From: Flavobacteriales bacterium
GTDB lineage: Bacteria > Bacteroidota > Bacteroidia > Flavobacteriales_F > PHOS-HE28
Assembly (NCBI GenBank): GCA_016716605.1
Contig: JADJWA010000002.1
Location: 88,031 to 152,030 of the forward strand
Reading direction: 5' to 3'
DNA length: 64,000 nt
The notes under the pieces are model-generated. The model did no database searches. It was given only the letters and a program-made list of their open reading frames with translations, and was not told the DNA's origin. Position numbers and translations under genes: made by a program. Shown here one piece after another: positions 1,194-16,053 of this stretch. Position 1 is the first letter of the stretch, and each line of letters starts with the position of its first letter.

Positions 1194-1955
1194 CTATTTC
1201 ATCCCCCGCTCCTTCTGGATCGCCTCATAGGCCTCTTGCACCTTCTTGAACTTCTCGTTCGCCGCTTTCTGCACCTCCTCACCGAGCTGCGCCACCTTGT
1301 CCGGGTGGTACTTCATGGCCATGCGGCGGTAAGCCTTCTTCACCTCCTCGTCGGTGGCGGTGCGGTCGATCTCGAGCACCGCATACGCAGCACCTGGATC
1401 GGCGGTGCGGAACATGGCACTCAACGAGCCCAGGTCCTTCTCGCTGATGCCGAGTTCGTGCGCGACGGTGCGCAGCAGGCCGATCTCGCTACGGTGCACC
1501 TCGCCATCGGCATGGGCCAGTCCGATGAGGTAATGCAGGAGCTGCAAGCGCACGGGGTGCGGCATGTTGTGGCGCACCTGCGCGCATACCTCGTGCACGG
1601 GGATCTCCTGCTTGAGCGCATCGCGCAGCAGCACGAGCAACTCACCGGCCTGCTGCGCGCCGAACTGCTGCATGAAGAAGCGCCGCACATGATCGAGTTC
1701 GCGCTGGGTCACCTTGCCATCGGCCTTCATCAGCGCGGCCGTGAGCACCACAAGGCTCATGGCCAAGTCGCCGGAAGTGGTGGAGCGGGCGCGCGGCGGA
1801 GGCTGCGCGGTGCTTCCATCCGTGCTGCCGCCCATGTGATCCATCATGGCCCCGATGGCGAAGCCGAGTATGCCGCCGATGGGGCCGCCGAAGGCCCAGC
1901 CGAGCCCGCCACCGATCCATTTGCTGAAAGCCATTGCGCGAATTGAGGTCGGCAA
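1194..1955 (-). CDS. djlA: DnaJ-like co-chaperone DjlA (N-terminal TM, TerB-like middle, C-terminal J domain)
   Basis: 253 aa. N-terminal Gly-rich TM segment, a central TerB-like region, and a C-terminal J domain with KAYRRMAMKYHPDK (HPD motif). Confidence 0.85.
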   Translation of the reverse strand: MPTSIRAMAFSKWIGGGLGWAFGGPIGGILGFAIGAMMDHMGGSTDGSTAQPPPRARSTTSGDLAMSLVVLTAALMKADGKVTQRELDHVRRFFMQQFGAQQAGELLVLLRDALKQEIPVHEVCAQVRHNMPHPVRLQLLHYLIGLAHADGEVHRSEIGLLRTVAHELGISEKDLGSLSAMFRTADPGAAYAVLEIDRTATDEEVKKAYRRMAMKYHPDKVAQLGEEVQKAANEKFKKVQEAYEAIQKERGMK

Positions 1956-2002
1956 AGATGAATGTTGGGCCGTGCAGTGCCAGCGCGCCGATGCACGAGC
2001 GG

Positions 2003-2734
2003 CTACTGCTCCTGCTGCTCGGCTTCAGCCGGCACCACACGGTACCGCAGCAGCACATCCGACCACACGGTCTCATTCCCTGCGGTGCGCGCATCGCGCA
2101 GCGGTGATGGATCGCTCCAATCGCCGGGCTCCGGTGATTCGGGCAAGGGCAGGTCGAAGGCGAGCCAGGTATCCTCCTCGATGTGGAAGCTGAGGATGCG
2201 CGTGCTCGAACGGGTGTTCAGATCCGCTCTCACAGGCACGATCAAGAAGCCCCCCTCCTCCCGGAACTCCGATCGATCGACGGTCGCGTAGCCGTTGTCC
2301 TTCGGTCCTGCATACAGGCTCATGCGGATCTGATCAGGCTCACGCGATCGGTCCGTGATCCGCTCCAGCGGCACGCGCACCTCCACCTCCAAGGCGAGCA
2401 AGGCGCCTTGATGCTTCAAGGGGCGTGGGATGGACAGCAGGCTGAGCCCTGCGATGCCGAAGAGCGCCACTTGGGCCAGCAGCAGCGACAAGCCCAATGC
2501 CTTCCAGAACTGCATCCATTCCGCTGCGCTCACGAGCTTGGTTCCCAGCAGTCCCAACAAGAAACCGCCGATGAAGCCCGCTGGGATGAAGAGGAAGACG
2601 ATCGCATAGCCGCGCTTGCCCTCGAAGTCGCTCACGCCGTGCAGGCCCGTGACCTTGTCAGCCACGAAAACCGTGGCGAAGGCCGTGATGATGGCTGTGA
2701 GCAGGGCGACGACGAGGGCGATCTTCCAGGACAT
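2003..2734 (-). CDS. Hypothetical membrane protein
   Basis: ORF trimmed to the internal start MSWKIALVVALLTAIITAFATVFV (TM), with a second hydrophobic segment. The longer upstream extension is Arg-rich and implausible. Confidence 0.5.
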   Translation of the reverse strand: MSWKIALVVALLTAIITAFATVFVADKVTGLHGVSDFEGKRGYAIVFLFIPAGFIGGFLLGLLGTKLVSAAEWMQFWKALGLSLLLAQVALFGIAGLSLLSIPRPLKHQGALLALEVEVRVPLERITDRSREPDQIRMSLYAGPKDNGYATVDRSEFREEGGFLIVPVRADLNTRSSTRILSFHIEEDTWLAFDLPLPESPEPGDWSDPSPLRDARTAGNETVWSDVLLRYRVVPAEAEQQEQ

Positions 2735-2794
2735 GGTGGGCGCGTGCCGGTGAAGATCGCATCTTCGACGCATTCAGGCGTGAACAGCAAGTGC

Positions 2795-3073
2795 ATGGCA
2801 CAGGTCATCATCACCGAAGAGGGGCGCTCCGGCTCCGTGCTTTTTGAATCCGATGGCCGCCGCATCTCCGGCTGGTGGGAATTCGCCGGAGGCGATGCCG
2901 TGGCGATCGTTCACATCGGCAGCGCCAGCGAGTGGCGGCATGGCCACTCCTGGGCGGTGGATCAGCGCGTAGAGATCATGCGCTTCATCGCGGATGAGGT
3001 GATCCGGCAAAAGGCCAGCAGCTGCAAGGCCGTGATCGATGAGGAGGGCGGATGGATCACGCTCAAACGATGA
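2795..3073 (+). CDS. Small hypothetical protein
   Basis: This is the 3' part of the long ORF 2183-3073, which otherwise overlaps the antisense membrane gene. Only the portion after the minus-strand gene end is non-overlapping and protein-like (MAQVIITEEGRSGSVLFESDGRRISGWWEFAGGDAVAIVHIG). Confidence 0.35.
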   Translation: MAQVIITEEGRSGSVLFESDGRRISGWWEFAGGDAVAIVHIGSASEWRHGHSWAVDQRVEIMRFIADEVIRQKASSCKAVIDEEGGWITLKR

Positions 3074-3083
3074 TCTACAGCGG

Positions 3084-4160
3084 ATGAGCGACACAAAGGA
3101 TGAACAGGAGACCGCCGTCGCATGGTACCGGCGGTACCGTTCGCTGGGCCTCAAGCTCTCGCTATTCGTGGGCGTTGCGGCCCTCATCTTCGGCGCTGTG
3201 ATGTGGTTCGGGAAGAAGGTCCTCTCCGTGGCCCCCGCGAGCGGAGTTCCGCTGGGCGAATGCGTGCGCACCGAAAGCCACATCGCCTCGCTCATTCAAG
3301 CCACCGACCCGCACCTGCCCGAGATCAGCGGCCGCGGCGGAAACACCACCACGAGCGTCAGCATCCTGATCATTCCGATGGATGGGAGCGAGCCGAAGAA
3401 GATCCTGATCGCCGAGGGCCTCACGTCGAATCAGTTCGCCTTAGCGAAGATCCTCGGCAGTGATGGACAGGTCCTGTGGTTCGACGTCAACGGCATCGGC
3501 GGCGTGGACCTGAAGCGCTTGGCATTGCTGCAACCCGCAGAAGTGCGAGACCCCTACGTGCCGAAGTCCGCATGGCCCTTCGCGATCAGCGCTGACACCT
3601 ACCTCTCCGCTGGTTTCATCGTAGCGCACGGACAATGGCTCGGGCTCCATTCAGAAGAGGAGCTGATGAGCGAGTTCGCTCCGAAGAAGTTCTTGCGGCG
3701 CGTGGTCCCGCAGCCACTTCGCTCTGCTCGTGGTGACGGCCTACCAGTGCGCCGATTCCATCGCGGTGTGCTTGAAGCGCCCGTGGATGAGAAGTACCAT
3801 CGCATCATTTCCATGGATCCGCTCAGCAACGATGCGTACTTCAATGCGGCCTTCCTGCGCATGGACGACGATGCGGAACCGATTCGCCTCACCGATCCCG
3901 ATGGCGCGCTCATGATCCACACCTCTGAGCCCGGGCTCAAGGGCACCACCGCCATCTCTCGTGTCGACCTTGATGGCAGGGTCATTTGGTCAGTGGATAC
4001 CGCCATCGATCGCTTCAAGCTCTTGCAGATCCTGCCGGGGAAAGAGTCGTTCGCCTTCGTGGGCACGCGGCTGCCCGTGCCGGATAAGCTGAGTGAGCCC
4101 TTGGTGGTGATCGTGGATAATGCCACAGGTGAGGTGCGCTCGGAGACGTTGTGGAGGTAG
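3084..4160 (+). CDS. Hypothetical single-pass membrane protein with large C-terminal domain
   Basis: Start MSDTKDEQ. One TM (LSLFVGVAALIFGAVMWF) followed by about 300 aa of soluble domain. A diverged copy of its last 52 codons recurs at 6630-6797. Confidence 0.6.
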   Translation: MSDTKDEQETAVAWYRRYRSLGLKLSLFVGVAALIFGAVMWFGKKVLSVAPASGVPLGECVRTESHIASLIQATDPHLPEISGRGGNTTTSVSILIIPMDGSEPKKILIAEGLTSNQFALAKILGSDGQVLWFDVNGIGGVDLKRLALLQPAEVRDPYVPKSAWPFAISADTYLSAGFIVAHGQWLGLHSEEELMSEFAPKKFLRRVVPQPLRSARGDGLPVRRFHRGVLEAPVDEKYHRIISMDPLSNDAYFNAAFLRMDDDAEPIRLTDPDGALMIHTSEPGLKGTTAISRVDLDGRVIWSVDTAIDRFKLLQILPGKESFAFVGTRLPVPDKLSEPLVVIVDNATGEVRSETLWR

Positions 4161-4199
4161 ACCAAAGCGCCGGTCGGTCACACGCGCCTGCTCTCCGCC

Positions 4200-4240
4200 G
4201 CATTGACTTGATGCCCCGAGGTCTGGAAGGATCCGTCTAC
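4200..4240 (+). promoter_or_regulatory. Candidate Bacteroidota-type promoter (-33 TTG / -7 TAnnTTTG) upstream of the NTPase-LRR gene
   Basis: TACATTTG at about 4228-4235 matches the Bacteroidota -7 consensus TAnnTTTG. A TTG lies about 25 nt upstream, in ATTGACTTG. Confidence 0.35.
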
Positions 4241-4274
4241 ATTTGATTCACAGGGTTCCAACGCCAGCCCATCG

Positions 4275-6608
4275 ATGTCCAAAGGATCCCAAGGTGAGCC
4301 AACGGTCCTTGACCTGCTCAAGGAGCTGAAGGAGTACATCATCGTGCTCGCCCTGCTCGCCAGCGTGGTGGGCTACCTTGCGTACAACCTGCACAAGCTG
4401 CCGGAGAGCATGTGGCTGTTGCGCATCCTGTTCTGGATGGCCGTGCCGGTGATCCTGCTGCTGATCTACCTCTACAACCTGCGGCCTGCCATGATCAGGC
4501 AGCGCGAGCTGCGCATCCGTCCTACCGGCGACCCCACGGCGGAGTACTTCACGACGTCGCCACGGACGGAAGCGGATAGCGCGCTTTTCAATGGTAAACC
4601 GGAATACGAGAAGATTCTGAGCTGGCTGATGAGCGCGCATGAACCCGTCCTGATGCTCACTGGTCAATCGGGGGTTGGCAAGAGTTCGTTGGTCGATGCG
4701 TACTTGGCGCCTGAGCTGAGCAAACACTCCGAGCCGCGTATAGAGGTCGTCCGTTTGCGTGCAGGGCAGGATCCGCTTGCTGAGTTGAAGGGTGCCTTAT
4801 CTGAACGGCTGAAGGCTTTCGGCAATGATGCCGGCAACCTGGATGCCCTTCAACTGGTGAGCGCCTTGGAAAGCATCGCACCTGCTGGACATCGCACGCT
4901 GATCGTGCTGGACCAATTCGAGGAGTTCTTCCTGTTGCAAGGCGCGGTCGCCAATGCGGATCCCGTGAGCGCGGGAAAACCGATCGTGCATCAGCCGATG
5001 GTTGAGGAACTCCGGGATTTTTTCCGCAGGCTGTTGGTACTGCGGCCAACGCGCCTTTCCATCCTGCTCTCCTATCGTGAAGACCACCAGCCAATGGTGG
5101 ACGCACTTGAACTGCCCGCGCGGACCGAGCGGCTCAACTGGATGCCCGTGTACCCGATGTCACTTGCCAGCACGCGGGCCTTCATCAACGCCTGCCCCGG
5201 CCTCAATGTGCCGAAGGAGCGCATGGACAAGGTGATCGCAGAGGCCGCACGGTACGAGGATAGCCAGGGCATCCGGCCGATCGTGTCTAACATCCTCGGG
5301 CTCGTGCTGCTCCGTATGGTCGACCATCCTACGGCCTGGCGAAGGACCGACGATCTACTGCGCTATTACGTGGAGAGCGGATTGGGTAAGGAATTGCGGC
5401 TCGACCGGGCCAAAGTGCTCCGATCGCTGCTTTCTGATTTCAGGACCGCAACACCGCATGCCGTCAGGAAATTGGCGAGCTCGACGCGCTGGTCCGTACG
5501 CACCCTGGAGAACCAATTGGAACTACTCGGACACCATGGCCTGCTGCGCTGCCTGAATCCCGCCGAACCGGAGCCTGGCGAGCGCAAATGGCAGATCGCG
5601 CATGACTTCCTCGCCTTGCAGGTGGATCGCGTAATGCCCGGCATTCATCAAACGACCTTCCGTGCGATCCGCCCGTGGCTCGCTCCGACAGCCTTGCTCA
5701 TCGTCATCCTGCTTACCTCATTCATCGCCAATAGCCCCGAAGACAGAGCCGCACGCTCGCTCCGTGAAGTCGGGCTGATGTGGGATCCGGAACGGCGGAC
5801 GATCGAGTCATCAAGCTACGCCGAGGAGAACCTCTCATCGGAAATGATCCGTGAACGGAAAGGCGATCTGGTGCTCCTTGATCCGCAAGCGATGAGTGTC
5901 TACTCCGAGGTATTGGTCGATCTCGAATGGCTTCAGGGACTTCAATCGTTGCGATCCCTTGATATCCTTGGCTGCAATGAGCTGAAGGATCTTAGTGGAT
6001 TGCATTGGGCACCCGGAATCGTGGAACTTGAGATATCTCTGAACACCGGTATCGAGGAACTGGGCGGGCTGCAACACCTCCACGGGCTCAGGTTCTTTTC
6101 TATGGCATATTGCCCAAAGCTCAACGGTATCGAAGAGTTGTCGGGCCTGACAAGCCTGCGAACGCTGAGCCTGGCGAGCAACGACTGGCTGAAGGACTTG
6201 AACGCGATACGCGGCTTGGATTCGCTGGAGCAACTTCGCCTGGGTAATTGCCAACAACTCACCGACTTCAGCGGGCTGCAAGGCTTTGCGCGGCTAAGTC
6301 GTCTGGACTTGAAGAGGTGCGTTCGGCTGAAGGACCTCGAAGCGCTGCGCGGGTTGACCTCACTCCGGGCGCTTGACATCTCCTTTTGCGACAGCCTTGT
6401 CGACCTGAGCGCGCTGACGGCACTACCTGCCATGGATACCTTGCGCTTGCATGGGCCGTGGTTGTTCGAGATGGTGGATGAACTACCACCATTACCCCAA
6501 CCGCGACGGATAGAGATCGGTGCATGCGAATTACCCGTCGGTGCCGATACCGCAGGTCTTCGCGCGAAACTCCCCCATATGGTGGTGCTACCGAAACCGG
6601 ATAGGTAG
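4275..6608 (+). CDS. Membrane-anchored P-loop NTPase (STAND/NACHT-like) with C-terminal cysteine-containing leucine-rich repeats; NLR-like candidate sensor/defence protein
   Basis: 777 aa. Two N-terminal TM helices (IIVLALLASVVGYLAY; MWLLRILFWMAVPVILLLIYLY). Walker A LMLTGQSGVGKSSLV and Walker B TLIVLDQFEEFF. A third hydrophobic helix (LAPTALLIVILLTSFIANS). About 10 LRRs of LxxLxxLxLxxCxxLxDLSxL type (LDILGCNELKDLSGL, LRLGNCQQLTDFSGL, LDLKRCVRLKDLEAL, LDISFCDSLVDLSAL). Confidence 0.8.
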   Translation: MSKGSQGEPTVLDLLKELKEYIIVLALLASVVGYLAYNLHKLPESMWLLRILFWMAVPVILLLIYLYNLRPAMIRQRELRIRPTGDPTAEYFTTSPRTEADSALFNGKPEYEKILSWLMSAHEPVLMLTGQSGVGKSSLVDAYLAPELSKHSEPRIEVVRLRAGQDPLAELKGALSERLKAFGNDAGNLDALQLVSALESIAPAGHRTLIVLDQFEEFFLLQGAVANADPVSAGKPIVHQPMVEELRDFFRRLLVLRPTRLSILLSYREDHQPMVDALELPARTERLNWMPVYPMSLASTRAFINACPGLNVPKERMDKVIAEAARYEDSQGIRPIVSNILGLVLLRMVDHPTAWRRTDDLLRYYVESGLGKELRLDRAKVLRSLLSDFRTATPHAVRKLASSTRWSVRTLENQLELLGHHGLLRCLNPAEPEPGERKWQIAHDFLALQVDRVMPGIHQTTFRAIRPWLAPTALLIVILLTSFIANSPEDRAARSLREVGLMWDPERRTIESSSYAEENLSSEMIRERKGDLVLLDPQAMSVYSEVLVDLEWLQGLQSLRSLDILGCNELKDLSGLHWAPGIVELEISLNTGIEELGGLQHLHGLRFFSMAYCPKLNGIEELSGLTSLRTLSLASNDWLKDLNAIRGLDSLEQLRLGNCQQLTDFSGLQGFARLSRLDLKRCVRLKDLEALRGLTSLRALDISFCDSLVDLSALTALPAMDTLRLHGPWLFEMVDELPPLPQPRRIEIGACELPVGADTAGLRAKLPHMVVLPKPDR

Positions 6609-6629
6609 ATGATCCATGCATTGTGCTGT

Positions 6630-6797
6630 AAAGGGGTTGTCCAATCCATCGCTTCAAACTCGCACAAGTCATGACCGGAAAGGGCGCCTACGCATTCGTC
6701 AGCACTAGGCCTCCTTTGCCTGACAAGCTTAGCGAGCCCTTGGTGGTGATCGTGGATAACGAATCGGGCGAAGCGAGCACCCATTCACTGTGGCGCT
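6630..6797 (+). pseudogene. 3'-terminal remnant of a paralog of the 3084-4160 gene
   Basis: Translates to PIHRFKLAQVMTGKGAYAFVSTRPPLPDKLSEPLVVIVDNESGEASTHSLWR*, against AIDRFKLLQILPGKESFAFVGTRLPVPDKLSEPLVVIVDNATGEVRSETLWR* at the end of 3084-4160. An in-frame TAA lies immediately upstream, and no start codon or N-terminal region is present. Confidence 0.55.
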
Positions 6798-6829
6798 AGC
6801 CGCTGGGCATTGATGAGGTAGCTTGCGGC

Positions 6830-7939
6830 ATGCATGTATTGCACCTTCTGCTTGTCGGCGCTTCCTTCAACGCCATCATCGTGCAGGCCCAGCCTTGGGA
6901 ACGCCCGCTGATGCAGGCGTGGTCGGCTGATGGCGTCACCTTTTCCGTGCCCTCGATCTTCCAGGATTCCTCTGGCGTGCCGTCAGTGATCCGCTGGAAG
7001 CCAGACACGCTCATATGCGCCTTCCAATGGTTCCGCCAGCCCATGGGCTCACCATCCTGGGACCGCGTCGCCGTGAAATTCTCCTACGATGACGGCCAGA
7101 GCTGGACTACGCCCGAAGCGATCCTTGTGAACGGCCTGCCATCGGGCTATCAACGGCCCTTCGACCCTACGCTCGTGAAGCTTGGCGGCGACAGCCTGCG
7201 CATCTACTTCTCATCCAGCGCCACGCCGCCCATGGGACTCGATGCCTCAGTGAACACCTATTCGGCCCACACCACCGATGGCGTCAACTACACCTTCGAG
7301 CCAGGTGCGCGCGTGGACGTGGCCACCATGCCCGTGATCGATCCCGCCGTGATCCGCTTCGGGCCGGGCTGGCACTACGCCGCGCCGGCCGGTGCGCCGC
7401 AGGATGGCGCTTACCACTACCTCTCGCCCAATGGGATCGACTTCAACGCCGTGCCCATGATTCCGTCCGACGCCATGCACAACTGGACCGGCAACTACAT
7501 GGTGGAAAGTCCGAACGAGCTCCGCTTCTATGGCGCTGGGCAGAACGGGGTCTGGTACAACTCCTCGCCGAACGGCGGCACCTGGAACGGCTACGTGAGC
7601 ACCAACATCATGGGCGGCGACCCGAGCGTGGTGAAGGTGGCTGACAACAGCTACCTGATCGTTTACGTGGGCCAGCCATACGCCATGGGTCTTGATGGAC
7701 CAGCTGCCTCAAGCGCGAAAGTATCGGTGGTGCCGGTGCCCGCGCGCGACAGGCTCCGCCTCGTGAACGGATCATCTGTTGTGAGCTACCTGATCCTGAG
7801 CATGGCCGGTGCGATCCTGCAAGAAGGCCGGCCGATGAACGGGATGATCGATGTGCAGCGCATTCCGGCAGGCGCGCACCTCCTGCAACTGCATGATGCG
7901 GAGGGTGAGCGCACGACCTTGCGGATCATGAAGGATTAG
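6830..7939 (+). CDS. Secreted BNR/Asp-box (sialidase-fold-like) protein with T9SS C-terminal sorting domain
   Basis: Signal peptide. One Asp-box SYDDGQSWTTP. The C-terminal roughly 80 aa is a Por secretion tail (VSVVPVPARDRLRLV...LQLHDAEGERTTLRIMKD). Confidence 0.7.
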   Translation: MHVLHLLLVGASFNAIIVQAQPWERPLMQAWSADGVTFSVPSIFQDSSGVPSVIRWKPDTLICAFQWFRQPMGSPSWDRVAVKFSYDDGQSWTTPEAILVNGLPSGYQRPFDPTLVKLGGDSLRIYFSSSATPPMGLDASVNTYSAHTTDGVNYTFEPGARVDVATMPVIDPAVIRFGPGWHYAAPAGAPQDGAYHYLSPNGIDFNAVPMIPSDAMHNWTGNYMVESPNELRFYGAGQNGVWYNSSPNGGTWNGYVSTNIMGGDPSVVKVADNSYLIVYVGQPYAMGLDGPAASSAKVSVVPVPARDRLRLVNGSSVVSYLILSMAGAILQEGRPMNGMIDVQRIPAGAHLLQLHDAEGERTTLRIMKD

Positions 7940-7973
7940 GGCAACGCCGGATCGGATCATTGTCCTTTGCTCC

Positions 7974-9161
7974 ATGGAACGCAAACGCATCGCGATCATC
8001 GGGGGAGGACCTGCTGGCCTGATCGCAGCCGATGCGCTCGCCCAACATGGCGAGGTGCACCTCTATGAGCAAGGCAAGAGCGTAGGCCGCAAATTCCTCG
8101 TGGCCGGACAAGGCGGTTTCAACCTCACGAACAGTGCGGAGGGCGAAACGTTGAAGGCGATGTATGCGCCACCCGGTTTCCTGGATGAAGCCCTCGCATC
8201 CTTCGGGCCCGCGGAATTGCGCGCGTGGCTGCAGGAGATGGGCATCGAAACCTACGTGGGCACCAGTGGCCGTGTCTTCCCGGTGAAAGGGACCAAGCCC
8301 ATCGATGTGCTGCAGGCCATCCGCGACCGGCTGATCGCGCGCGGGGTGCGATTCCACTTGGAACATGCCTTCATCGGCTTCGATGCCGAGGTGCGCCCGA
8401 TCATCGAGCATGCGGGCAGTCGTTCAGCCGTGCAAGCGGATCGCGTGCTCTTCGCGTTGGGCGGCGCGTCATGGTCCGTCACCGGATCCACGGGCCATTG
8501 GGTCGCGCATTTCGCATCGCTCGGCCTGGACATCGCGCCGTTCCGCTCATCGAATTGCGGGATCAACGTGCAGTGGCCCGCGCACTTCATCGCCGCGCAC
8601 GCCGGCAAGCCCTTGAAGAACATCCGCATCACGGCTGGCGACCGAAGCGTGCTTGGCGAGGCCACGATCACGGAGCACGGCCTCGAGGGCAACGCGATCT
8701 ACCCGATCGTGCCGGTGGTGCGCGAAGCCTTGGAGCGCGGTGAGGAGGCCTTCATCCGCATCGACCTGAAACCGAACAGCACCGCCGAGCACCTGTTGCA
8801 CAAGCTTTCCGGCAGCACACCAGCCGACTACCCGAAGGCCCTGCGCCTGGATCGCGTGCAGTTGGCCATGGTGAAGGCCGTTACGCCGAAGGAGCGCTTC
8901 TTCTCCCCCACCGATCTGGTGCAGGACAGCAAGCACTTGCGCATAGCGGTCACCGGTCTGCGACCGATTGAAGAAGCGATCTCGACCGTGGGGGGGATAC
9001 GTCCGGCAGACCTCACGCCCGCGTTCGCAATAGCGCGCTACCCGCAGCTGCACGCCATCGGCGAAATGGTGGATTGGGACGCCCCCACCGGCGGCTACCT
9101 GCTGCAAGGCTGCTTCGCGATGGGGCACCATGCGGCGCAGTGCATCCTCGCCGCACGCTGA
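7974..9161 (+). CDS. NAD(P)/FAD-dependent oxidoreductase, HI0933/BaiN family flavoprotein
   Basis: N-terminal Rossmann motif IAIIGGGPAGLIAA. Characteristic FLVAGQGGFNLTN, and a length of 395 aa. Confidence 0.85.
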   Translation: MERKRIAIIGGGPAGLIAADALAQHGEVHLYEQGKSVGRKFLVAGQGGFNLTNSAEGETLKAMYAPPGFLDEALASFGPAELRAWLQEMGIETYVGTSGRVFPVKGTKPIDVLQAIRDRLIARGVRFHLEHAFIGFDAEVRPIIEHAGSRSAVQADRVLFALGGASWSVTGSTGHWVAHFASLGLDIAPFRSSNCGINVQWPAHFIAAHAGKPLKNIRITAGDRSVLGEATITEHGLEGNAIYPIVPVVREALERGEEAFIRIDLKPNSTAEHLLHKLSGSTPADYPKALRLDRVQLAMVKAVTPKERFFSPTDLVQDSKHLRIAVTGLRPIEEAISTVGGIRPADLTPAFAIARYPQLHAIGEMVDWDAPTGGYLLQGCFAMGHHAAQCILAAR

Positions 9162-9401
9162 CCCCGAACGTGATCCGGCGGGATCGCGCTCGATGGGATC
9201 CCCGGAGGTGCCTGCCTGCTGGAGCTGACCGATGCCAACGGAGCGAGGATGGCCTTGAGGTTCGCTATCGAGTGAGCCCCGATGCCGACCACCACCAGCA
9301 CGATCTCGCCAGCGGCATTGGTGAAGCAGCGCGTGATGCCGCCTTGTGCCAGCAGGCTTTGGGGGATGGTTCGGAAGAAGCGGATCATGGTCGGTGTTGC
9401 T

Positions 9402-10130
9402 CTACTTAAGATCCCGAATGTGATCATCGAGTTGTGCCAGAATGGAAGCGATGTCATGCTCCATCGCTTCATACCGCCCTTGCATGTACTTGCGGATGAA
9501 GAGGTTCATCTTCACGACCTCCTGGAATTTCCTGTCATCCATGAGCCGCTCATGGTCCACTGGCGTGGCCGATACCCACATGGCTTCCACGTTCAGGTGC
9601 TCCAGGACTTGCGGATAGACATGGTTCCATTGGTAGCCATCATCAAGGCCCTTCTCAACATTCTCCAGGTACACGTACTTCATGGAGTACAGGGCTGATA
9701 TGGCATTGCGCAGGCTGTCGTCAGAGATCAGGTCGATGCCCACGGACTTCAGGTTCTCCCAGGCCGCGGTATTCTCGCTGAGCTGGAAGTTGCCGAGGAT
9801 GTTTCCATAATGCTTCTCCAGCGTATCGCTCAGAGGCGTTCGCTCCTGGAACGCATTCAGGACCGCTTCATTCGCACGGATGCGCTTCAGGTTGCCGGTG
9901 ACGTTGTATCGCACGTCCAGCAGGTCCGCCACTAGGTTCTGCCGCATTTCCTGCAGCAGTACCAGTTCCTTGCTGCGCGTTTTGGCCTCAGCGCTGGCAT
10001 TGTTGATGCTCAGCGCGATCAAGATGCCGATCACCACCAGCACGATCTCACCCACGGCATAGACTAGGTAGCGCGTGAGGCGGTTCTCCTTCAGGAGCCG
10101 CTGGCGGATGATGTTGAAGATGCGGGGCAT
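9402..10130 (-). CDS. Hypothetical membrane-anchored protein (lower-GC gene)
   Basis: Trimmed to MPRIFNIIRQRLL... One N-terminal TM (YLVYAVGEIVLVVIGILIALSI) then a soluble alpha-rich domain. The local GC is visibly lower than the surroundings. Confidence 0.55.
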   Translation of the reverse strand: MPRIFNIIRQRLLKENRLTRYLVYAVGEIVLVVIGILIALSINNASAEAKTRSKELVLLQEMRQNLVADLLDVRYNVTGNLKRIRANEAVLNAFQERTPLSDTLEKHYGNILGNFQLSENTAAWENLKSVGIDLISDDSLRNAISALYSMKYVYLENVEKGLDDGYQWNHVYPQVLEHLNVEAMWVSATPVDHERLMDDRKFQEVVKMNLFIRKYMQGRYEAMEHDIASILAQLDDHIRDLK

Positions 10131-10304
10131 GGGCAGGGTTGGTCGGTGAAGATGCAGAATCGGCCCTTTCCGCAGCTCATTCCACGGATGCGGCGACAAG
10201 CAGCAGAAGCAAGGTTGAACGACGCATGGCCGCAGAAGCAACCCACCATACCCCAATCGCGGTATTCCGACGCAACCATTCCGTTCGGACCTTCGCCGCC
10301 TTCC

Positions 10305-10574
10305 ATGATACCGGAAAGCGAGCGCACCATCAGCCTGGACCAATTGCCCGAAGAGGGCTCGGCCACGGTTGCCGGCGTCACCGTGCCCACGGATGCGGCT
10401 GAGCGCACCCTCGTGCTGCGCCTGCTCGAACTCGGCTTCGTGCCAGGCGAGCGCGTGCAGGTGATCCATGAAGGCCGTCATCGCCGGGATCCCATTGCCG
10501 TGCGATTGGGCCACACCACTTTCGCATTGCGCCGCCATGAAGCTGCCTTCATCCAAGTGACCCCTTCAGCGTAG
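10305..10574 (+). CDS. feoA: Ferrous iron transport protein A (FeoA)
   Basis: About 89 aa SH3-like FeoA (GSATVAGVTVPTDAAERTLVLRLLELGFVPGERVQVIHEGRHRRDPIAVRLGHTTFALRRHEAAFIQV). Lies directly upstream of and abuts feoB. Confidence 0.75.
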   Translation: MIPESERTISLDQLPEEGSATVAGVTVPTDAAERTLVLRLLELGFVPGERVQVIHEGRHRRDPIAVRLGHTTFALRRHEAAFIQVTPSA

Positions 10575-13589: not shown

Positions 13590-13862
13590 ATGCCCATCCT
13601 CGACCTGAATGTGGACAACCTGAAATGCGGCGGCTGCGCCAGCACCGTGCGCAAGCGCTTGAATGAGCTGCCCGGAGTGGTCTCCACCTCGGTGGATGTG
13701 GACAACGGCACAGTGACCGTTGCGCACGACGGCACCACGGAGCGCAGCACCATCACCTTGCTGCTGCATAAGCTGGGCTATCCGCTCAGCGGCACCGGCG
13801 GCATCACCGAGAAAGCAAAATCATACGTGAGCTGCGCCATCGGCCGCATCCACGGCGAATAG
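13590..13862 (+). CDS. Heavy-metal-associated (HMA) domain protein, CopZ-like
   Basis: 90 aa. Metal-binding loop NLKCGGCAST, a variant of the GMxCxxC motif. Confidence 0.85.
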   Translation: MPILDLNVDNLKCGGCASTVRKRLNELPGVVSTSVDVDNGTVTVAHDGTTERSTITLLLHKLGYPLSGTGGITEKAKSYVSCAIGRIHGE

Positions 13863-13886
13863 TGAAACGCTAACCCCTGCACCGCC

Positions 13887-14261
13887 ATGATCCGCTTCCT
13901 CTCCCGCCTCAGCCTGCCCGCCCTCCTGCTGGCCTCGCTCTTCACGCTACAGGCCTCGACGGCCAGCGCGCAAGACAGTCCTTCCGGTGTCATGGAAGCC
14001 ATCGTCACCCTGCACGATCCCGGCGTTGATGCGCAGGCGTGGCAGCGCTTCGCCCTACGCGTGGGCAAGGAAACCGGTGCCAACATCGAATACAGCTGCC
14101 AGCGCGCGGGCATCATCGTGGTGCGCTTTGAACGCCCGACCATCCAGGAGAAGGCCGATGCCATCACGCTCGTGCGGCGGCTGCTCAACGAGGCCGGCAT
14201 CACCACTTCCGTCGAATTCCTCCACGTGCACGTGGAGCGCGTATCGCAGAACAAGTGCTGA
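13887..14261 (+). CDS. Small secreted hypothetical protein
   Basis: Signal peptide MIRFLSRLSLPALLLASLFTLQASTASAQD. 124 aa. Confidence 0.6.
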   Translation: MIRFLSRLSLPALLLASLFTLQASTASAQDSPSGVMEAIVTLHDPGVDAQAWQRFALRVGKETGANIEYSCQRAGIIVVRFERPTIQEKADAITLVRRLLNEAGITTSVEFLHVHVERVSQNKC

Positions 14262-14320
14262 TGGACTGAGGCCCTGCTCCGCTGGTCGGAGCGGATGTCG
14301 ATGGCGCCAATGGATCGTGC

Positions 14321-15490
14321 TCATCGCACCTGGAGCACCTGCCCTTCCTCCACCCAATTCCGCGGCCGAGCACCGAGCTCACCACCGGGCAGCGAGTACA
14401 TGATCTCCATCGCCCCGATGTGAACCCGCCCGTATGTGGTGGTGCGGTACACGAGGTAGCCGGCGGAAGCAGCGGGTGTGGCGGTCCATTCCTTCGCGGT
14501 GCCGTCGATGCCATGCGGGTGGCGCAGCATTTCGATGAACACGCGCTCGCCCTCTGATGAAGCCCAACGCATGGTTCCGCTCTTCAGGCCGGTGGCCAGG
14601 TGCTCCGGCGTCAGTTCATCAACCTCGGTCAGCGTGAACGGACCCCAAATGCCCCAGCGCGTGTTCGTCATGAGGATGGCTGTGCCCGGCAGGGGCGATA
14701 TGCCACGCACGTAGTACCCGGATCCGTCGGTGCCGTGCCAGTGCTCATCCACGGTTGTAATCACCAGATCGTTCACCTCATCATCGTGGAGGTCCACGAA
14801 CTCATCCGGGGCCAGGCCCGGCGGCACCATCACCTGTGGTTCGCTCTCTTCGTGCCCGAAATCGTAGCCATCCTTCACGATCGGCTTCGTCGGCCTCGGA
14901 TCGCCTTCCTCACCGTAGCCGTTCGGAACACGGATGGCCTCCTTCGACTTGACCACGACGCGGCCATAGGGATAAGGGAGCTCAAATTCGAAAGCTGCGA
15001 TGCTCGTGCCGCGCTCATTGGCGCTGCGCAGCACCAGCGTGTGCCCGTCGTGATGATCACCGGTGCCGTACCAGCCATCCTCCGCTTGCGTGATCGCAGG
15101 CCCGAAGGGGCGCTCCAACAACCAGAACTCCGTGGCTTGATCCTGATCGGTCCAGCGCAGTTGCTTGAACCGGATGCGCGCTGCGAGCACCGCCGTATCC
15201 AATCGCGCAGCGCTGTCCAAGGTGTACCAGCGCTGATTGCTCCGCGTGCTCCACATCAGGACGGAGGTGCCGCTCAACGTACGCACACCCACCTTGTACG
15301 ATCCCAGGTATCCGGGTTGCTGGGGATCCGAAACATGAATGGTGCGGCTGGTGATCAGCAGATCGGCGCGTCCATCGCCGGTCACGTCCACGTACTCATC
15401 GGGCGCAGGGCCGGGGATGATGCGGTTGGTCTGCGCCTGCAGCTGCACGGCGAGCGCACCGAGGCCGATGAGCAGGGCCTGCGTCCTCAT
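14321..15490 (-). CDS. Secreted hypothetical protein (FG-GAP/VCBS-like Asp-Gly motifs)
   Basis: Start MRTQALLIGLGALAVQLQAQ (signal peptide). Motifs DVTGDGRADLLI and VNDLVITTVDEHWHG. It is the last gene of a three-gene overlapping operon. Confidence 0.65.
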   Translation of the reverse strand: MRTQALLIGLGALAVQLQAQTNRIIPGPAPDEYVDVTGDGRADLLITSRTIHVSDPQQPGYLGSYKVGVRTLSGTSVLMWSTRSNQRWYTLDSAARLDTAVLAARIRFKQLRWTDQDQATEFWLLERPFGPAITQAEDGWYGTGDHHDGHTLVLRSANERGTSIAAFEFELPYPYGRVVVKSKEAIRVPNGYGEEGDPRPTKPIVKDGYDFGHEESEPQVMVPPGLAPDEFVDLHDDEVNDLVITTVDEHWHGTDGSGYYVRGISPLPGTAILMTNTRWGIWGPFTLTEVDELTPEHLATGLKSGTMRWASSEGERVFIEMLRHPHGIDGTAKEWTATPAASAGYLVYRTTTYGRVHIGAMEIMYSLPGGELGARPRNWVEEGQVLQVR

Positions 15491-16053
15491 CGCACCACGA
15501 AGGCTTGATCGGCCGGCACCAGCGCACCCACGCGGATGATCACGTGGCCCGTGCTGGTGGATCGGTCGATCGCGAACGAACCGTGCCACAGCTTGCCTTG
15601 GTGCATCGTTCGGAACACGTAGCGTTGGGCAGCCAGCCCGGGCATCACCGTTACCAACGCCGACTGGTGCCCGTAGCCCCAGTGGGCCACTTGCATGGAG
15701 CCATCCGTGTAGCTCACCAGCGGGATCTGCAGGTCGTCCTGGGGCCGGGTGGGCATCGCAGGGATCCGTTCCCCTTCGGCGCAGACCCTGGTGCGCCAGA
15801 AGCCTTGCTCATCGCGCATGTTGAGGATGGTGGTACCGGGCAGGTTCATGACATGGAGGTAGCAATTGCCGGAACTGCTCGGCTCATCGTCGGTGCCGCT
15901 GCTGAAACCCTGCACTACAAGATCCGGGATACCGTCGTGGGTGATGTCGATGCTGTCGCTCGGTGCGAAGCCGCAGTAGTTGCGGTCGAAGCCGGGCTGT
16001 GCGAAGGCTGGAGCACCCAGGAGCAGCACGGGAATGAAGAACAATGACCTCAT
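15487..16053 (-). CDS. Secreted hypothetical protein, paralog-like of 14321-15490
   Basis: Signal peptide MRSLFFIPVLLLGAPAFAQP. Motif ITHDGIPDLVVQG. Its stop overlaps the downstream start. Confidence 0.65.
   Translation of the reverse strand: MRSLFFIPVLLLGAPAFAQPGFDRNYCGFAPSDSIDITHDGIPDLVVQGFSSGTDDEPSSSGNCYLHVMNLPGTTILNMRDEQGFWRTRVCAEGERIPAMPTRPQDDLQIPLVSYTDGSMQVAHWGYGHQSALVTVMPGLAAQRYVFRTMHQGKLWHGSFAIDRSTSTGHVIIRVGALVPADQAFVVR

Follow-up and report, generated by a model that had tools for sequence, protein, structure and literature searches.

In Rhs, CdiA, and other polymorphic-toxin loci, incoming DNA recombines at a conserved segment close to where a gene ends, with a new tail brought in and the old one orphaned downstream; the orphan modules are native on either side of the conserved motif, and an immunity gene accompanies them. 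Restriction-modification gene units have been reported to undergo insertion with long target duplication (Nobusato et al. 2000; Furuta et al. 2010, PMC2853133). These inserts often lie at the 3' end of a gene between direct repeats of >30 bp, and the two repeats, both being copies of the target in the recipient, are nearly identical, e.g., 45/46 and 417/423 (Furuta et al. 2010, PMC2853133). For such units, a cycle of invasion, amplification, and release has been hypothesized, of which the amplification step only is shown by experiment. Systems predicted to counter invaders include STAND NTPases of the nSTAND1 clade (Kaur et al. 2021, PMC8195603).

Here, we present an analysis of a locus in which features of these systems meet. 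It lies in the window, i.e., the 64,000-nt stretch of Flavobacteriales DNA that was analyzed, and comprises a 358-aa gene (the resident gene), a short spacer, an nSTAND1 NTPase-LRR gene (the cargo), a fragment resembling the end of the resident gene, and a 371-aa gene (Table 1). Our data support with high probability that a 2,639-bp foreign unit recombined into the 3' end of the resident gene at a shared core and left the fragment as a scar.

Table 1. Features of the locus in window coordinates. L001, L007, and L004 are close relatives with an empty site; L006 is an independent contig with the occupied arrangement. Fractions are identical nucleotides; "foreign" is used as explained in the text.
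Feature	Position	Strand	Remarks
Resident 358-aa gene, hybrid	3084..4160	+	Native to 4120; last 12 codons and stop likely foreign
Left copy, pre-core part	4005..4094	+	Native; 84/85 identical to L001, L007, and L004
Left copy of 26-nt core	4095..4120	+	Exact repeat of 6734-6759; putative crossover interval
Replacement tail of resident gene	4121..4160	+	Likely foreign; ends ..ATGEVRSETLWR, stop; 22/40 to L001; kept in L006
Spacer upstream of cargo, 114 nt	4161..4274	.	Likely foreign; absent from L001, L004, and L002
Cargo, 777-aa nSTAND1 NTPase with C-terminal LRRs and three hydrophobic segments	4275..6608	+	Domains from Pfam
Linker between cargo stop and remnant	6609..6643	.	Holds TAA at 6629-6631; may be more-decayed homology
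Right copy, pre-core part	6644..6733	+	Likely foreign; apparently decaying 3'-end fragment of a distant homologue; 56/85 to L001
42-codon ORF within remnant	6671..6799	+	Judged non-functional
Right copy of 26-nt core	6734..6759	+	Exact repeat of 4095-4120
Putative displaced original tail and stop of resident gene	6760..6799	+	Native; 38/40 to L001, 39/40 to L007, 36/40 to L004
Native downstream 371-aa gene	6830..7939	+	About 30 nt past resident gene in relatives; defines empty site

The region from 6644 to 6799 encodes 51 residues and a stop codon matching the C-terminus of the 358-aa resident protein. In a BLASTP comparison of this protein with the translation of 6632-6799, 33/51 residues (65%) were identical in an ungapped alignment (E=3e-22) that runs to the aligned stop codons, confirming that the similarity is real and far above chance. 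The initial annotation, which was made from the sequence alone, had described an in-frame match ending at an aligned stop, and this description holds; it had assigned 52 residues at 6630-6797 to the match, and of this span the homology is correct, but it is solid only from 6644 and extends to the stop at 6799. A weak and uncertain extension possibly reaches upstream to about 6572-6605. The in-frame TAA noted earlier is present at 6629-6631. At the DNA level, the two copies are offset by exactly 2,639 nt with zero indels and are identical at 108/156 nt. They have in common a perfect 26-nt core, GAGCCCTTGGTGGTGATCGTGGATAA; the second-longest identical run within these 156 nt measures just 10 nt. 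A near-identical core block had been claimed earlier as 29/30; the block is there, but over the 29-mer in question the count is 28/29.

Four close relatives (L001, L007, L004, and L002) have a single copy of the resident gene, no insert, and conserved flanks, which are 87-96% identical to those of the window on the left side and 82-94% on the right side. The 371-aa gene lies within about 30 nt of the single resident gene in L001 and L004 and adjoins it in L007, while in L002 a thioesterase gene separates the two. BLAST homology between the window and these empty-site relatives stops at 4119-4120. The alignment to L001 consists of two blocks (1194-4120 and 6644-10134) that overlap on the same 116 nt of L001, with window 4005-4120 and 6644-6759 both aligning to L001 10910-11025, and in the alignment to the relatives 6760-6799 runs on without a break into native sequence, first the intergenic region and then the 371-aa gene. 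The genes neighboring the insert are syntenic housekeeping genes. The previous assignment of 4275-6608 to accessory DNA is thus supported by its absence from four close relatives with conserved flanks. Flank identities give the relationship ((window,(L001,L007)),L004),L002; because every relative is empty, one gain suffices.

We also surveyed the family more broadly, using 10 family members as tblastn queries against 54 genome and 62 metagenome loci with flanks of up to 10 kb. Neither a second copy of the resident gene within 10 kb nor an NTPase-LRR gene was present at any of these 116 related loci, and a second tail fragment was seen only in the window and in L006. Apparent tail fragments at L060 and L036 were rejected, as they are just overlapping neighboring contigs. 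The more distant family members are single copies with HSLWR-type tails.

The two copies in the window are reciprocal hybrids that switch origin in opposite directions at the 26-nt core. The left copy is identical to L001 at 84/85 positions before the core and at 22/40 after it, while the right copy is identical at 56/85 positions before the core and at 38/40 after it (Fisher p=7e-10 for the left copy and 3e-4 for the right copy). The comparisons with L007 and L004 repeat this pattern. We refer to the parts that resemble the relatives as native and to the others as foreign. Between the foreign and the native pre-core part, dS is 1.37 and omega 0.12, arguing that the foreign pre-core part diverged over a long history within a functional gene elsewhere. 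The foreign part also carries states found in other family members (TRPP, QV, and GKG), and the cargo gene has a GC content of 0.59 and a GC3 of 0.71 compared with 0.63 and 0.78-0.87 in its neighbors. Based on the lower GC and GC3, the pre-core divergence, and the family-type states, the insert is likely foreign in origin. Two consequences follow from the reciprocal switch: no 5' part of a second gene need have existed at the locus, and the intact upstream gene itself probably terminates in 12 foreign codons. The earlier proposal of a footprint of recombination or horizontal insertion agrees well with the empty sites and with the switch from native to foreign at the core.

In the event that we propose, the unit would span 4121-6759 or, equivalently, 4095-6733, and would consist of roughly the final 50 codons of a gene distantly homologous to the resident one, the 114-nt spacer, and one nSTAND1 NTPase-LRR gene. 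It would have entered by reciprocal recombination inside a stretch of 26-31 nt common to unit and chromosome. The resident gene would have kept its frame with its end swapped for 12 foreign codons, and its own last 12 codons and stop would have moved 2.6 kb downstream, behind the foreign pre-core piece; the hybrid piece at 6644-6799, i.e., the fragment of the initial annotation, would be the by-product of the crossover. In the circle or donor form, the junction of foreign pre-core part, core, and foreign tail would read ...CCTCCTTTGCCTGACAAGCTTAGCGAGCCCTTGGTGGTGATCGTGGATAATGCCACAGGTGAGGTGCG.... The topology may have been that of a single Campbell-type crossover with a circular form or, equally, that of a double crossover, both in the core, with a donor chromosome in which two copies of the gene tail already bracketed the cargo. 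Neither a donor genome nor a circular junction was found: the reconstructed foreign C-terminus had no clear best match among 120 homologues, a database search with it returned only the 42-aa ORF of the window itself, and exact look-ups of the cargo protein of the window, P0158, and P0159 gave no further contigs. The family has several conserved nucleotide islands, of which the core is only one, and the core was the longest match in 8/107 comparisons; the idea that no other nucleotide island of the resident gene is as conserved was, therefore, rejected. Rather, we suggest that the core was used because it is the only long identity within the 156 nt common to unit and chromosome.

To compare the locus with long target duplication, we applied the criteria of Furuta et al. 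(2010, PMC2853133), which are absence from a related genome with similar flanks, a size of <20 kb, no integrase, transposase, or other mobility gene, and direct repeats of >30 bp. A small defense-type accessory block is present in one genome and absent from a close relative, the 2,639-bp insert has no mobility gene, and the repeats, which are in register over 156 nt, both align to the single empty-site target; the proposed cycle of invasion, amplification, and release via the repeats would fit too. In contrast to the published cases, the repeats are identical at only 108/156 nt and each is half foreign with a switch at the 26-nt core, arguing that the repeat arrived with the cargo and was not copied from the target. 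Moreover, the cargo is a STAND NTPase instead of a restriction-modification system. With Campbell-type integration and the integrase islands at the 3' ends of genes, the locus shares hybrid repeats resembling attL and attR, an apparent crossover in a short identical core, and a target kept intact by an incoming tail (12 codons here) with the old tail displaced downstream. However, the incoming arm is a recognizable in-frame fragment of a real homologous gene, and no circular form was observed here. In addition, and unlike in integrase islands, the 2.6-kb unit contains no gene for an integrase or recombinase of the tyrosine or serine type, and the site is not reused, with no second fragment or cargo in the 116 loci and nothing relevant in viral contigs searched with the resident-gene family and the cargo gene. 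As in the orphan modules of Rhs and CdiA, a new tail is supplied and the old one ends up orphaned downstream; here, however, the pre-core part is foreign, no more than 12 residues of tail are exchanged, and the cargo is unrelated to the target.

We favor host homologous recombination as the activity behind the insertion because about 90 nt of in-frame gene homology precede the core, which would be superfluous for an attachment site. The insert has a single ORF with nSTAND1 and LRR as its only domains and no gene for a recombinase or other mobility function. A scan for attachment and transposon motifs detected no terminal inverted repeats or dyad symmetry at the core and the insert ends, no promoter or convincing terminator matches, and no tRNA or Rfam element. 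It is conceivable, although we consider it improbable, that the unit is a recombinase-free mobile cassette made up of one immune-sensor gene and a conserved 3' end, copied from a widespread host gene, that serves as a portable homology arm. Such a cassette would enter diverged Flavobacteriales by host recombination at the 26-nt core; with every entry, the target would be repaired and a hybrid scar would remain, and excision via the two cores would restore the circle. So far, the occupied arrangement has been seen in a single lineage, comprising the window strain and L006; with a single-lineage event, recurrence and, hence, dedicated mobility are unsupported. There were no cargo homologues near any member of the resident-gene family, no second cargo at the 3' site of the resident gene among the 116 family loci, and no flanking-duplication signature at four loci of distant NTPase-LRR homologues, for which the window served as a positive control and worked.

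The chances appear slim for mobilization in trans, by which the mimic of the gene tail would be an attachment site for a recombinase encoded elsewhere, comparable to integron cassettes and Xer-dependent elements. The compact unit of one ORF and a site, the short identical core with heterologous arms, and the restored target gene would all suit such a mechanism; however, a recombinase gene lies neither within nor beside the insert, the core and the ends are devoid of dyad symmetry and inverted repeats, the cargo family has no second such site, just as none of the 116 loci has a second cargo, and an attachment site does not need the in-frame gene homology ahead of the core. About equally doubtful is a reversed polarity, in which the occupied state is ancestral and recombination between the cores precisely deleted the insert in the single-copy relatives. 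Such recombination would recreate exactly a gene of the L001 type, precise deletion in the relatives would give the same pairwise pattern, and two diverged backgrounds, the window and L006, share the occupied state. On the other hand, the window branches within the empty genomes in the tree of the flanks, so that separate losses would be needed in L001/L007, L004, and L002; moreover, the distant family members are single copies with HSLWR-type tails, and the composition of the insert is shifted. It is only on grounds of parsimony, and for want of two-copy genomes, that we reject precise deletion at the core.

The same observations bear on the origin of the fragment put forward in the initial annotation, namely, that the locus had two tandem paralogs and that about 320 codons at the 5' end of the second gave way to the NTPase-LRR gene, leaving the fragment as a pure remnant. 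The homology of the fragment to the end of the upstream gene is indeed genuine, in frame, and aligned at the stop, and its divergence from that gene under purifying selection (omega 0.12) is as for an old paralog. Nevertheless, we regard this scenario as very unlikely: the close relatives are all single copy and 0/116 loci are double; the fragment after the core matches the single gene of the relatives at 38-39/40 positions, while it is the tail of the upstream gene itself that diverges (22/40), and this jump in identity at the core contradicts a pure paralog remnant. Furthermore, precise deletion at the same core would have to have occurred independently three times or more.

Returning to insertion by recombination at the core, the occupied arrangement is not an assembly artefact; this possibility was rejected because the same junctions occur in independent assemblies. 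L006, an independent Logan contig (run ERR14964778), spans both junctions, and a second Logan contig encodes an identical NTPase-LRR protein and an identical 42-aa ORF, an ORF for which Logan is the only source on record in the protein collection. The window and L006 form a mosaic that is 100% identical at 4920-5760 and 70-77% identical in the remnant, arguing that later recombination blurred the history. In the remnant, omega is 0.77 compared with 0.14-0.20 in neighboring genes, the reading frame is indel-free in both assemblies, and near-invariant family residues have been substituted independently in the window and L006. While no start codon had been reported immediately upstream, the fragment contains an internal ATG at 6671 that opens a 42-codon ORF; in L006, this codon is CTG. 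Based on these comparisons, we judge 6644-6799 to be a non-functional by-product that is probably decaying in almost neutral evolution, in line with its earlier description as a non-functional 3' end. That the fragment is instead a functional small gene or a regulatory leader of the 371-aa gene is highly implausible, although the ORF starts with ATG, was called as a gene in a Logan assembly, and is free of indels in both assemblies: the ORF lacks the ATG in L006, has lost conserved family residues independently in the two assemblies, and evolves at an omega of 0.77, the fragment has no Rfam match, and the relatives express the 371-aa gene in its absence.

The insertion is an ordinary, though cleanly readable, route of accessory gene gain in bacteria. 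The locus provides a base-resolved example of an accessory gene, probably for an immune sensor, entering the chromosome without a mobility gene of its own, for which about 26 nt of identity to a conserved host gene would be the sole requirement. It also carries two warnings for annotation: an intact-looking gene may have a foreign terminal exchange, and a small ORF beside an island may be merely a displaced old tail. At present, the scope is one event in one uncultured lineage; if more such units are found, the idea of long target duplication would extend from restriction-modification systems to STAND-type sensors, and a testable model for recombinase-free transfer of defense genes between diverged lineages would be at hand.

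The cargo protein matches the Pfam family nSTAND1 (PF20703) above the curated threshold (72.4 bits; cutoff 27.1; E=7e-20), and a Walker A motif, GQSGVGKS, is readable in its translation. LRR_4 (E=6e-20) and several other LRR models match across aa 553-730, and hydrophobic segments are located at aa 21-39, 48-66, and 467-485. The combination of an NTPase with sensor-type LRR repeats is the usual layout of nSTAND1-type STAND immune sensors; in contrast to these systems, the protein has the three hydrophobic segments in place of a recognizable effector domain. A PADLOC search gave no significant match. Among the known relatives, one is a 94% twin and the others are homologues of ≤39% identity, of which one (about 33% identity) adjoins a type I restriction-modification locus. 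Based on the domain content and the neighborhood of this one homologue, the cargo is probably an immune or conflict-type sensor. Between the window and L006, omega of the cargo gene is 0.19, and the 114-nt spacer, which contains no sigma-70-like promoter match and no convincing terminator match, is about 96% identical.

The 358-aa resident protein has an N-terminal membrane helix and an all-beta body. It had no match in Pfam, apart from a weak, sub-threshold one to PA2928_fam. In the AlphaFold model (pLDDT 84.6), the all-beta body is possibly beta-propeller-like, with weak matches to beta-propeller folds (TM-score around 0.2) on which we assign no function. The protein is identical to MBK9149178.1 and has 273 homologues, mostly from uncultured Flavobacteriales.

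Downstream of the NTPase-LRR gene, a translated stretch is similar to the C-terminal end of the 358-aa protein encoded by the resident gene, with aligned stops (BLASTP, 33/51 identities, ungapped, E=3e-22), as the initial annotation had observed. The two copies are in perfect register at a spacing of 2,639 nt and identical at 108/156 nt; their longest uninterrupted identity spans 26 nt (GAGCCCTTGGTGGTGATCGTGGATAA, the core), and the second-longest spans 10 nt. The homology is solid from 6644 and may extend weakly toward 6572-6605.

The window aligns to L001, the contig of a relative with a single gene copy, as two blocks (1194-4120 and 6644-10134) that both cover the same 116 nt of L001. The closest homologues of the 358-aa protein (94% aa identity in L001, 92% in L007, 85% in L004, 79% in L002) lie in a common gene order (DjlA-like, 243-aa, 109-aa, family gene, then 371-aa gene), followed by an HI0933-like gene in L001, L007, and L004 but not in L002. 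The family gene and the 371-aa gene are ~30 nt apart in L001 and L004, and likewise in the L007 alignment; these three loci lack both an NTPase-LRR gene and a further copy of the family gene. The overlapping blocks, together with the empty site in the relatives, argue that the ancestral locus held a single gene and that the window has acquired an insertion bordered by a repeat of that gene's end. L002 has a thioesterase gene (4HBT_2, L002 11098-11556) at the insertion spot, without any repeat. More than one lineage varies at the spot directly after the family gene.

Features of the insertion locus in the window, with identity of the two repeat copies to L001
Feature	Position	Before core	After core	Fisher p
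Resident gene ORF, 358 aa	3084-4160
Left copy	4005-4160	84/85	22/40	7e-10
Core, left	4095-4120
NTPase-LRR ORF, 777 aa	4275-6608
Right copy (remnant)	6644-6799	56/85	38/40	3e-4
Core, right	6734-6759

Based on a five-way alignment, the two copies are reciprocal hybrids. The left copy matches the relatives as far as the core and diverges beyond it. The right copy does the opposite: it is divergent ahead of the core and resembles the relatives from there on, across its stop, the intergenic region, and the following gene; the switch at the core is repeated with L007 and L004. These opposite switches place the crossover within 4090-4120 and bear out the earlier reading of the fragment as a footprint of recombination. 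The 12 terminal codons of the resident gene are foreign (ATGEVRSETLWR in place of ESGEASTHSLWR), and the fragment itself consists of foreign pre-core sequence joined to the resident gene's own displaced tail. In the 90% protein cluster, every other member has a native-type tail. Between the foreign and native pre-core pieces, dS is 1.37 and omega 0.12, arguing that the foreign piece mostly evolved as part of a functional homologue of a distant lineage; it carries states common elsewhere in the family. The insert is somewhat lower in GC (0.59 versus 0.63) and GC3 (0.71 versus 0.78-0.87).

The insert contains one ORF, no recombinase domain, and no terminal inverted repeats. It could have arisen by a single Campbell-type crossover of a circular unit into the chromosome, or by two crossovers, both in the core, with a donor chromosome that already had the cargo flanked by two gene-tail copies. 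The two routes are topologically equivalent, and either would leave reciprocal hybrid repeats that share one short core; searches for a donor and for a circular junction of the unit found neither. Host homologous recombination seems favored because the arm of the unit is a recognizable in-frame gene fragment with ~90 nt of sequence ahead of the core that a dedicated attachment site could do without, and because the core is the only usable identity in the 156 nt shared. In E. coli, ~25 nt is near the minimum length for efficient RecA-dependent exchange. A site-specific enzyme acting in trans could also have made the insertion, but this alternative is without any recurrence support.

The window locus is a fresh example of an already known type of event. 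Its nearest published counterpart is insertion with long target duplication, known from restriction-modification units; such inserts are small, lack mobility genes, and have repeats of >30 bp that both match one empty-site target, often the 3' end of a gene (PMC2853133). Three of its hallmarks are found at the window locus; the fourth, repeats near-identical to the recipient's target, is absent, since half of each copy is foreign. In layout, the locus also resembles the attL/attR of islands that integrate in gene ends and restore them, but without an integrase, and is unlike Rhs/CdiA orphan toxin tails, which are native on both sides of the motif.

Flank identities (left/right) of the window are 95.8%/93.6% to L001, 95.3/93.9 to L007, 92.6/86.7 to L004, and 87/82 to L002; L001 and L007 are 99% identical to each other. 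The resulting branching is ((window,(L001,L007)),L004),L002, with every relative empty. One gain would suffice to explain the occupied site, whereas the alternative takes at least three precise deletions. The initial annotation was right that this DNA is accessory, the NTPase-LRR gene being absent from the empty-site relatives; its proposal that the gene displaced most of a tandem paralog fails, as all four relatives are single-copy and a survey of 116 family loci, drawn from genomes and metagenomes, turned up no case of two copies within 10 kb.

The same insertion is present in a second, independent assembly (L006), and the event is known from one lineage. Identity between the window and L006 is mosaic: the stretch 4920-5760 is 100% identical, the LRR part 75-90%, and the remnant 70-77%. 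Within the NTPase-LRR gene (L006 196-2529), the LRR part has a dS of 0.375 and the NTPase part one of 0.088; omega is ~0.2. A tract at 6910-7353 inside the 371-aa gene has 73-79% identity to L001, with 95-99% on both sides, and looks like a separate imported recombination tract ~150 nt right of the insert. Recombination is frequent around the locus, and some historical details are blurred.

The remnant is judged non-functional. Between the window and L006, its omega is 0.77 and that of the NTPase-LRR gene 0.19; omega of the resident gene is 0.17 (window versus L001). The near-invariant family residues lost from the remnant differ between the window and L006. The reported in-frame TAA is present (6629-6631), but the initial annotation overlooked an ATG at 6671, which opens a 42-codon ORF and is CTG in L006. 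There was no Rfam match, tRNA, promoter, or convincing terminator pattern.

The 777-aa protein is a STAND NTPase of the nSTAND1 clade with C-terminal leucine-rich repeats. Three of its segments (aa 21-39, 48-66, and 467-485) are hydrophobic, so the LRR part may be extracytoplasmic. The protein is rare, with one twin at 94% and all remaining homologues at ≤39% identity; one distant homologue adjoins a type I restriction-modification system, and another is on a plasmid-like contig. PADLOC gave no significant match. Because nSTAND1 was defined within predicted counter-invader systems (PMC8195603), we infer a possible role as an immune sensor.

The 358-aa protein has an identical match, MBK9149178.1, in a Flavobacteriales MAG. 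Its family has a highly conserved C-terminus and counts at least 273 proteins, nearly all from uncultured Flavobacteriales. A Pfam search assigned no family, with only a sub-threshold match to PA2928_fam. The protein has a single N-terminal hydrophobic helix, and its confident model (pLDDT 84.6) has an all-beta body with weak beta-propeller-like fold matches. Just 5' of the resident gene, a separate ~100-aa ORF (2771-3073) matches the N-terminal extension of 440-510-aa homologues (49% identity, E=7e-31); thus, the family has split and fused forms. In two 99% identical contigs of one other species (L104 10052-10501 and L056 1808-2305), the family gene is reduced to its 3' half (from ~residue 187), which is preceded by stop codons and opposite-strand genes; this 5'-truncated copy differs in origin from the window remnant.

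Elsewhere, L001 has three tandem DUF6090 genes (13674-15944), and the alignment at ~9300-10556 of the window suggests fewer copies, pointing to a copy-number change among tandem paralogs. An element of ~45-60 nt occurs four times in the window (22205, 25035, 25887, and 31345), and its core, CCTTCAACACCTACCGCCTGCCAAAGGCAGGCTGCTTCGCGGATA, contains a short hairpin.
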